Shown: one piece after another, positions 30,253-30,737 of the stretch | Position numbering within the stretch: position 1 is the first letter of the stretch | How the letters are laid out: each line of letters opens with the position of its first letter | IMG/VR virus record: IMGVR_UViG_2645727991_000022 | Length of the DNA stretch: 31,782 nt | Direction: 5' to 3' (one strand) | From: a virus | Lineage: Duplodnaviria > Heunggongvirae > Uroviricota > Caudoviricetes | Notes under the pieces: model-generated | Told to the model about the DNA's origin: nothing | The model's input: the letters and a program-made list of their open reading frames with translations, nothing else | The model's database searches: none | Translations under genes and position numbers: made by a program

Positions 30253-30565
30253 AATAAACTATCAAAAGATACTTTATTGCGGGCGTGACTCCGTACGAAC
30301 TCAAGAATACTTTGATTAATTACTTTGATAGTAGCTCCTGGGGTTTTGTTACTATGTCAGTACTGTTTCTTTTCTGAGCGAAAGCGAGTAAAATCCCTCG
30401 CATTTTTTTCGAGTACTAGCGAGAAAAAACGCAAGGATCGGTTTAATTTGTGTTTCAGTGACTATACGACCGCAGGGAGTGTAGGCACTCAAAGACCGAT
30501 TTGGACGTAGTTCAAGAGGTCTTAATTAATTCAACAATAAGAATGAAAGAATAATATTAATATAA

Positions 30566-30735
30566 GGGGGGCTAATGGCACACCCCCACATATAAAACCC
30601 TTGAAAGCACAAAATATACATATAAATCAGTATAGTGCACACTATATGTAGTGTTTCATTAGCCCATTAGCACATACATATTCAAACCATTAGCACATAA
30701 TTAGCACATATGTCTGGGCTATTATGTGCTAATGG
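30566..30735. repeat. cluster of symmetric elements and 13-mer iterons
   Basis: G6-N11-C5 inverted repeat (30566-30587, containing CTAATGG). A 16-bp palindrome TATAGTG-CA-CACTATA (30631-30646). CCATTAGCACATA at 30664-30676 and 30687-30699, ATTAGCACATA at 30700-30710, and the inverted copy TATGTGCTAATGG at 30723-30735. Confidence 0.7.
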
Positions 30736-30737
30736 TT

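Follow-up and report, generated by a model that had tools for sequence, protein, structure and literature searches.

Cooperation between distant operators characterizes the phage repressor/operator switches of lambda CI (OR/OL), 186 CI (FL/FR), and TP901-1 CI (OR/OL/OD). Late control of the lambda type rests on the Q gene and on an element within PR' to which Q binds, and a leader of ~190 nt precedes the late genes. Activator-dependent phage promoters without a -35 element include the T4 middle promoters, with a MotA box at -30, and those served by Mor and C of Mu and Ogr of P2, and iteron origins include pSC101, R6K gamma, and the SaPI ori, immediately 3' of the rep gene. Here, the noncoding gap at positions 30253-30737 of a 31,782-nt stretch of viral DNA (IMG/VR record IMGVR_UViG_2645727991_000022; the whole stretch is referred to as the window) was analyzed. 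The window represents nearly the whole of a ~34.5-kb low-GC prophage of E. coli and Enterobacter integrated at ybhA, and the gap follows the gene for a 161-aa protein, designated gpY. From the sequence alone, the repeats of the gap had been taken for a protein-binding hub with the adjacent 161-aa protein as the candidate binder, and a comparison of more than 20 elements points the same way, the type of site co-varying with gpY. The region is probably an array of gpY operators that would control the main promoter of the prophage, followed by an untranslated leader.

By analogy with CI-type switches, several copies of a type-specific site would lie at the lytic promoter and at some distance from it, strong distally and weaker proximally, with the regulator gene at the boundary of the lytic operon and with gene and sites exchanged as a unit between related phages. 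Unlike in these switches, gpY has no similarity to CI, Cro, or HTH_3-type repressors and no recognizable cleavage or sensor domain, its gene is co-oriented with the lytic operon instead of divergent, no divergent promoter pair was seen, the sites begin at gpY's own stop codon, and the target promoter lacks a -35 element. The apparent likeness to lambda Q concerns a regulator gene directly upstream of and co-oriented with a single target promoter, a site in the spacer/-35 region, a long untranslated leader before packaging, head, and tail genes, and a gene-plus-site module that varies while the downstream parts are shared. However, gpY has neither a Pfam Q-family match nor a fold match to solved structures, an extra site cluster lies 100-160 bp upstream, the leader has no clear intrinsic terminator, and no early operon lies upstream that would make the promoter 'late'. 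With the MotA, Mor, C, and Ogr promoters, the locus would share a conserved -10, the missing -35 hexamer, and a factor-specific box at about -17 to -35, whereas gpY is similar to MotA, Mor, or C neither in sequence nor in fold and no AsiA-like partner was identified.

Phage regulators that have their cognate sites at a promoter are a well-known kind of feature, and what is undescribed in the libraries searched is the gpY family, its site types, the co-oriented layout starting from the regulator's stop codon, and the long unstructured leader. Among 50,697 deposited phage genomes, blastn and tblastn searches with the region, gpY, and a distant gpY gave no match, and a literature search found nothing on the site motifs or on the integration site.

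Repeat sites, gpY, and the -10-like box

The repeats, the palindrome, the G6-N11-C5 hairpin, the CTTTGAT-type repeats, and the GCGAG hairpin listed by the earlier sequence-only reading were all recovered where it had placed them, by reading the sequence and with a repeat finder (Table 1). The 11-mer core ATTAGCACATA is present in four exact copies in 68 bp, all within 30666-30733. A search elsewhere, which had been proposed for the 13-mer, gave no further copy of the core in the rest of the window, one mismatch being allowed, and none in the 10 kb past the window end; as one further exact 11-mer is expected ~0.015 times in the window, chance is excluded. The O2 copies are spaced by 11 and 23 bp, which puts them on the same helix face. 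The CACTAnnnnTAGTG motif of the spacer palindromes occurs also in relatives with a different gpY type, and of the G6/C5 hairpin relatives conserve the C run and the half-site alone. The flanking genes are convergent, as had been read, and no convincing open reading frame (ORF) lies between them: the 61-aa ORF is present and its frame is not conserved. The coding reading of this ORF and of a 46-aa ORF was rejected on account of frame-shifting indels in relatives.

Relatives were collected from the contigs of gpY members at 83, 71, 70, and 67% identity and of more distant ones, and two invariant blocks of the leader served as probes for further loci in genomes, viral contigs, and metagenomes. 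This yielded more than 20 independent loci, and the site layout was tabulated for 22 of them. The gene order common to all loci is integrase, small membrane protein, ~50-aa ribbon-helix-helix (RHH) protein, X (a variable AP2- or HNH_3-like protein of 150-200 aa), gpY, a gap of 400-590 bp, and further genes, and the synteny, with a gap of 465-590 bp, spans Enterobacter, Kluyvera, E. coli, and metagenomic relatives.

The sites themselves are wholly different in sequence between groups of relatives (ATGTGCTAAT, ATGGGCTAAT, ATGTGGTTAT, ATAACCGTA, ATTAGCGTA, CATCTTTCC, AAACGAGAAC, and CCCGAATT; TATGTGGTTAT in the L021 type), and their arrangement recurs. The first site lies at -23 to +9 of the gpY stop codon in most of the 22 loci and is missing in two, and an inverted copy follows 27-41 bp after it in most, with extra tandem copies in several. 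Every locus but one has a last site, oriented like the first, at 87-189 bp past the stop codon. In 20 of the 22 loci, and across at least five unrelated site sequences, this last site is followed at a distance of 0-9 bp by a TATAAT-like hexamer within a conserved AT box (TTATATTAATATTA or TTAATATAATAT), and the position 17 bp upstream of the hexamer is never TTGACA-like. Site type C has one more inverted site, downstream of the box, so that sites bracket the -10 box. The spacer between the site clusters is ~100 bp long, and eight relatives carry at the orthologous place the full consensus for integration host factor (IHF), WATCAAnnnnTTR, for which the background in the window is 0.09 per kb. 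The AT-rich stretch is only ~20 bp long in E-type relatives. In L037 (6420-6640), a metagenomic relative of the same gpY type, the 8-bp AT-rich unit CTTTTATT is repeated ~20 times directly after the AT box, which may be a true expansion or may stem from the assembly. The window contains the AT box once exactly and has one near copy (29095-29108), upstream of the DUF3800 cargo gene; a second exact copy, as would mark a promoter class used throughout the phage, was not found.

Site type tracks gpY and not X or RHH, as judged from pairwise identities in 18-22 loci. L021 and L031 have X proteins 97% identical, gpY proteins 27% identical, and unrelated sites, whereas L031 and L041 share the same sites with gpY 99% and X 22% identical. 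The window and L017 have near-identical sites, gpY 83% identical, and X from different families, and the RHH proteins of the window, L019, and L022 are nearly identical, yet these loci have three different site types. On this evidence of co-variation, the RHH protein and X were rejected as binders of the 11-mer. Linkage arising from the adjacency of gene and sites contributes to the co-variation; the pattern, as far as it can be read from sequence, is still that expected of a cognate protein-site module.

Binding of gpY to DNA is what this pattern suggests, and the protein itself belongs to a very small family: word-based and exhaustive searches gave 36 close clusters and, among 1.8 billion proteins, 16 representative clusters. 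No stretch of 7-10 residues is conserved throughout the family. An identical gpY is encoded on 14 contigs from E. coli and related assemblies, and near-identical proteins are annotated in Enterobacter. No meaningful sequence-profile relative was found in Pfam, PHROG, or PDB. The AlphaFold2 model is all-helical (predicted local distance difference test score of 84) and has no fold match to solved structures; in BFVD, searched with Foldseek, its sole match is an uncharacterized protein of Klebsiella phage RaK2 with no function attached (E = 1.5e-5). In the model, residues 50-77 (helices 50-59 and 65-77) form a possible helix-turn-helix, the putative recognition helix of which, residues 65-77, differs between GCTAAT-type and GGTTAT-type members.

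The conserved leader

Beyond the AT box lies a leader in which invariant blocks, among them CAGTACTGACAAA and CAAAGT repeats, alternate with interchangeable type-specific hairpin modules. Its core (30355-30531) is 92-93% identical to that of an E. coli element whose gpY is only 21% identical. Among complete E. coli genomes, these central 175 bp match one strain, AREA_C483, at 92-93% identity, and the first 80 bp match 29 further strains at ~81%. Both matches lie in the noncoding gap downstream of a 155-174-aa protein that is a distant gpY homologue (27% identity with E = 9e-21 in one case, 20% with E = 3e-5 in the other), and gpY is intact in the decayed island found in the 29 genomes.

In L019, L020, L021, and L037, the leader runs into a strong ribosome-binding site (RBS) and ATG on the same strand, which identifies the window's minus strand as the functional one. 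In the window, homology to the leaders of relatives ends at ~30280, where a 4.5-kb cargo island and the convergent gene begin. The minus-strand function, the promoter with its conserved leader of ~270 nt, and the cutting of this leader from its operon by the cargo island are what the sequence-only reading missed.

The leaders of relatives (L037 6898-7183; L019 at about 5950) end in GAAGGAGG together with an ORF of 14 codons whose stop overlaps the start (ATGA) of a gene for a ~80-aa protein resembling, by eye, the N-terminal winged helix of LexA. This gene pair is missing from the window. Of nine small post-leader genes scanned in relatives, two matched PHROG families of unknown function only, and seven matched none.

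Table 1. Features of the gap between the 245-aa gene and gpY and of its borders, in window coordinates
Feature	Position	Strand	Remarks
Hairpin between gene X and gpY	31256..31284	T run on +, A run before it on -	11-bp stem; position kept in relatives
gpY gene	30738..31223	-	ORF of 161 aa, stop at 30738; candidate sequence-specific binder of the repeats; type tracks site type
Site O1, ATTAGCACATA on minus strand	30723..30733	-	5 bp after gpY stop; extended to an 18-bp arm, 30721-30738
Sites O2a, O2b, O2c, TATGTGCTAAT on minus strand	30700-30710, 30689-30699, 30666-30676	-	exact; opposite orientation
13-mer CCATTAGCACATA	30664-30676, 30687-30699		two copies
13-mer copy TAATTAGCACATA	30698-30710		11/13 match
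13-mer, inverted copy	30723-30735
Half copy after O2c, CATTAGCCCAT	30657-30667	-	degenerate
Spacer between site clusters	30598..30653	.	overlapping palindromes at 30631-30653
16-bp palindrome	30631-30646		7+2+7 (TATAGTG-CA-CACTATA)
Second palindrome	30640-30653		CACTA-TATG-TAGTG; overlaps the 16-bp palindrome
IHF-like motif TTTCAAGGGTTTT	30598-30611		degenerate; in the spacer
Degenerate copy facing O3, TATGTGGGGGT	30582-30592		listed as ACCCCCACATA among degenerate copies
G6-N11-C5	30566-30587		hairpin with half-site
Promoter-proximal degenerate site O3, CCATTAGCCCCCC on minus strand	30566-30578	-	listed as GGGGGGCTAATGG, half-site in hairpin
AT box TTATATTAATATTA	30552..30565	-	-10-like; starts 4 bp after O3; no TTGACA-like hexamer at -35
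Untranslated leader	30280..30551	-	conserved as primary sequence; ~270 nt here, 300-400 nt in relatives
Invariant block TTGCGTTTT	30424-30434
Invariant block ACTCGCTTTCGCTCA	30375-30389
Invariant block CAGTACTG	30358-30365
Invariant block, two ATCAAAGTA copies	30308-30329
GCGAG-N8-CTCGC-AT7 hairpin	30384-30409	+
61-aa ORF	30325-30510		TTG start; frame broken by indels in relatives
TACTTTGAT, two copies	30308-30316, 30321-30329		inverted copy at 30258-30266
Junction with cargo island and terminator of convergent 245-aa gene	30227..30279	+	hairpin 30227-30245, then T8
Stop of 245-aa gene	30214	+

Weighing the possible functions

Operator array, replication origin, attP with integrase arm sites, and partition site had been offered as functions of the gap. 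The operator array fits best, its last site abutting the -10-like box; the origin stays a minority option, attP is excluded, and partition is unsupported. A gpY-controlled promoter is preferred because the last site is fixed beside the -10-like hexamer across unrelated site sequences and because the region, in relatives, continues into an operon. In this model, gpY would bind the repeat sites, strong ones in the distal cluster and a weak proximal one, and these would cooperate via a bent or looped spacer, for which the IHF consensus, full in eight relatives and degenerate here, might serve. By occupying the -17 to -35 region, gpY would decide on firing by the host RNA polymerase. The leader would act as an untranslated 5' region, its conserved unstructured blocks probably serving a factor common to all family members. 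The 4.5-kb cargo island would have inserted after the leader, and the hub would now face the convergent gene and not its operon.

Several observations weigh against this model. A convergent gene follows the leader in the window, in which the hub may be partly vestigial. A consensus two-hexamer scan found no sigma-70 promoter at the AT box. L015, L066, and L067 share one site type, with the gpY proteins of L015 and L066 only 37% identical. The invariant leader block has no consensus RNA fold (RNAalifold gave two trivial pairs), and both strands fold no better than shuffles (z-scores of -0.44 and -1.30); since, in addition, the only two substitutions seen in window-type hairpins break pairs, a qualitative argument, the leader is taken to be conserved as primary sequence. 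Furthermore, the prophage has no recognizable replication gene and the gap is its largest noncoding stretch; an origin must therefore lie somewhere.

As to the sign of control, gpY may tentatively be regarded as a type-specific, immunity-like repressor, with a slight lean over an activator. In favor of the repressor are the presence of a strong cluster of sites, or of an inverted repeat resembling a terminator, right where a gene read in the direction of the lytic operon ends, the retention of intact gpY in the decayed island of the 29 E. coli genomes, and the lack of any other recognizable repressor candidate, no CI/Cro-type repressor having been recognized in the ~34.5-kb prophage by protein-family scans of the window and of L001 6900-10000. 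The bracketing of the -10 box in type C counts on the same side, as an extra inverted site downstream of the box suits repression better than activation and is a difference from the activator promoters. If gpY is a repressor, a second role of the distal sites would be to keep transcription of the co-oriented int-RHH-X-gpY genes from reading through, by a block or by termination. An activator in the manner of MotA, Q, or Mor, acting on the -35-less promoter, is a possible but doubtful choice, in favor of which are the missing -35 element and the position of the gpY gene, which directly precedes its target promoter and points the same way.

An iteron-type replication origin would use the same parts differently and is judged unlikely. 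Here gpY would be a small initiator binding the repeats, the IHF-type bend and the AT-rich stretch 30520-30565 would form the unwinding element, and transcription from the AT box might activate or prime the origin. The layout is origin-like in that direct and inverted repeats stand immediately 3' of a small gene, with an AT-rich box beside the last repeat. It can also draw on the IHF consensus between the repeat sets in relatives, on the 20-fold expansion of the AT-rich unit beside the box in L037, on the downstream block conserved without RNA structure, and on the same protein-family scans, in which no replication gene was recognized in the whole prophage. The resemblance to iteron origins extends, by analogy, to repeats apparently specific to the product of the adjacent gene, the IHF site, the AT-rich stretch, and the location just 3' of the gene. 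However, the AT element is a specific, fixed TATAAT-like hexamer 0-9 bp from the last site and not general AT-richness, the ~20-bp stretch of E-type relatives is too short for an unwinding element, and the downstream block is, in relatives, contiguous with the RBS of an operon. gpY also has no similarity to Rep, winged-helix, or helicase initiators in Pfam, PHROG, or PDB, the module is absent from 72,556 plasmids, and no DnaA box was noticed on reading the sequence, although no systematic search was made. A variant in which the ~300-nt leader is a transcription-primed origin (R-loop, ColE1- or T4-ori-like), with gpY switching on lytic transcription and host-driven replication from one site in a family that lacks any recognizable replication gene, is improbable.

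An action at the RNA level only, with the inverted copies after the gpY stop as a terminator or attenuator and the copy near the AT box as an alternative pairing, or with a small RNA as the product, is very improbable. The O1/O2 inverted repeat does form a perfect 18-bp stem here, and L033 and L034 resemble a canonical GC-rich stem followed by a U run. However, the four copies are exactly identical and not merely complementary, tandem direct copies occur in the window and in L066, the order a+ b+ a- b- in L019 cannot nest as a hairpin, and no U tract follows the stem in the window. The small RNA that had been proposed to end at the plus-strand terminator-like hairpin 30384-30409 found no support either: the hairpin lies within the invariant leader block but opposite to the conserved reading strand, its T7 tract is unique to this phage, and the stem or the T tract is lost in relatives. 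Rfam gave no match at the gathering threshold and below it only chance microRNA-like hairpin matches, and the folding at the level of shuffles and the pair-breaking substitutions described above speak against RNA structure as well. The minus strand of the leader has no consensus terminator; in relatives, type-specific leader hairpins are followed by A/U-rich tracts.

A recombination, partition, or packaging site, that is, attP with arm-type sites, a centromere, or cosB-like terminase sites, is scarcely credible, even though the combination of an IHF-type site and repeats in two orientations recalls attP arms and lambda cosB. Integration is the work of a large serine recombinase, the element is integrated with its junctions at ybhA, and the region lies ~3.5 kb inside, which excludes attP with arm-type sites; nor is the region a tRNA-linked att site, as a scan found no tRNA or tmRNA. 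For partition, no ParA/ParB was found and the plasmids gave no match. The terminase genes are 6 kb away and have their own repeat-bearing noncoding stretch (24596-24895), and the tracking of gpY by site type also speaks against such a function.

If gpY does control this promoter, the region would be the genetic switch of an unstudied lineage of temperate Enterobacteriaceae phages with low GC and a serine integrase, and an orphan family of helical proteins would be a specificity factor with exchangeable site types, amounting to an immunity-type system. gpY, the 11-mer, and the AT box would then offer an experimental handle on the inducibility of these prophages. A noncoding block of 300-400 nt is near-unchanged between elements with proteins down to ~20% identity, so an important shared reader must exist. 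The post-leader position marks a hotspot for the insertion of cargo or defence islands.

Prophage context

On the 14 contigs encoding the identical gpY, the element is placed between modC/ybhA and pgl. The sequence-only reading had suggested looking outside the window for an integrase or a replication initiator, of which the integrase alone was found: a large serine recombinase of 606-617 aa with Resolvase, Recombinase, and Zn_ribbon_recom domains, ~3 kb past the window end. As the window start lies close to the opposite prophage end, marked by a phage-borne HAD hydrolase beside a ybhA remnant, the prophage measures ~34.5 kb. The hydrolase is a 280-aa protein of the Cof type (window 1-843), and host ybhA remnants flank the element on both sides; the phage appears to supply a replacement for the ybhA disrupted on integration.

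Most prophage genes outside the cargo island are on the minus strand of the window, on which protein-family scans identified the small and large terminase, portal, tail, and lysis genes. The cargo island (25160-30280), between the leader and the terminase genes, encodes EAL, 104-aa, DUF2971, 214-aa membrane-like, DUF3800, and 245-aa proteins. Relatives have other genes, HNH and others, at this position, which is therefore an insertion hotspot. The noncoding stretch at 24596-24895, upstream of the Nu1-like small terminase gene, contains two copies of the direct repeat TTATTCACTT and the inverted repeat GGTTCGG...CCGAACC and is likely the cos region.

The palindrome AGTACT is present in 64 copies in window 1690-25731 plus 30359-31319, compared to 10.5 expected from base composition. 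In the core ORFs, for which synonymous-codon shuffles give 18.5 +/- 3.4 copies, there are 54, and all three reading frames are represented. The palindrome is absent from the cargo island (25732-30358), two of its four intergenic copies are inside the conserved leader, and several GC-containing palindromic hexamers have zero copies. The AGTACT excess points to DNA-level selection for a site.

Just past the window end (L001 9040-9354), a sigma-70-like promoter, TTGGGA-18-TATAAT, precedes an intrinsic terminator by ~60 nt, and beyond the terminator comes the 50-aa RHH gene, which is conserved across the prophage family. This promoter and terminator may belong to a short RNA or to an attenuated leader of the RHH-X-gpY genes.

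Along its entire length, the 952-aa tail protein (window 12986-15844) shares 55% identity with tail-fibre proteins of ~145-kb virulent coliphages, one of them labelled Justusliebigvirus, and the best match of the large terminase is the 141-kb Escherichia phage DCP80, at only 33% identity. Two homing-endonuclease-like genes were observed: a SegE/GIY-YIG-like gene among the lysis genes (window 2824-3252) and gene X (window 31291-31782), which matches the AP2-like part of HNH endonuclease families and in place of which relatives carry unrelated HNH_3 proteins.

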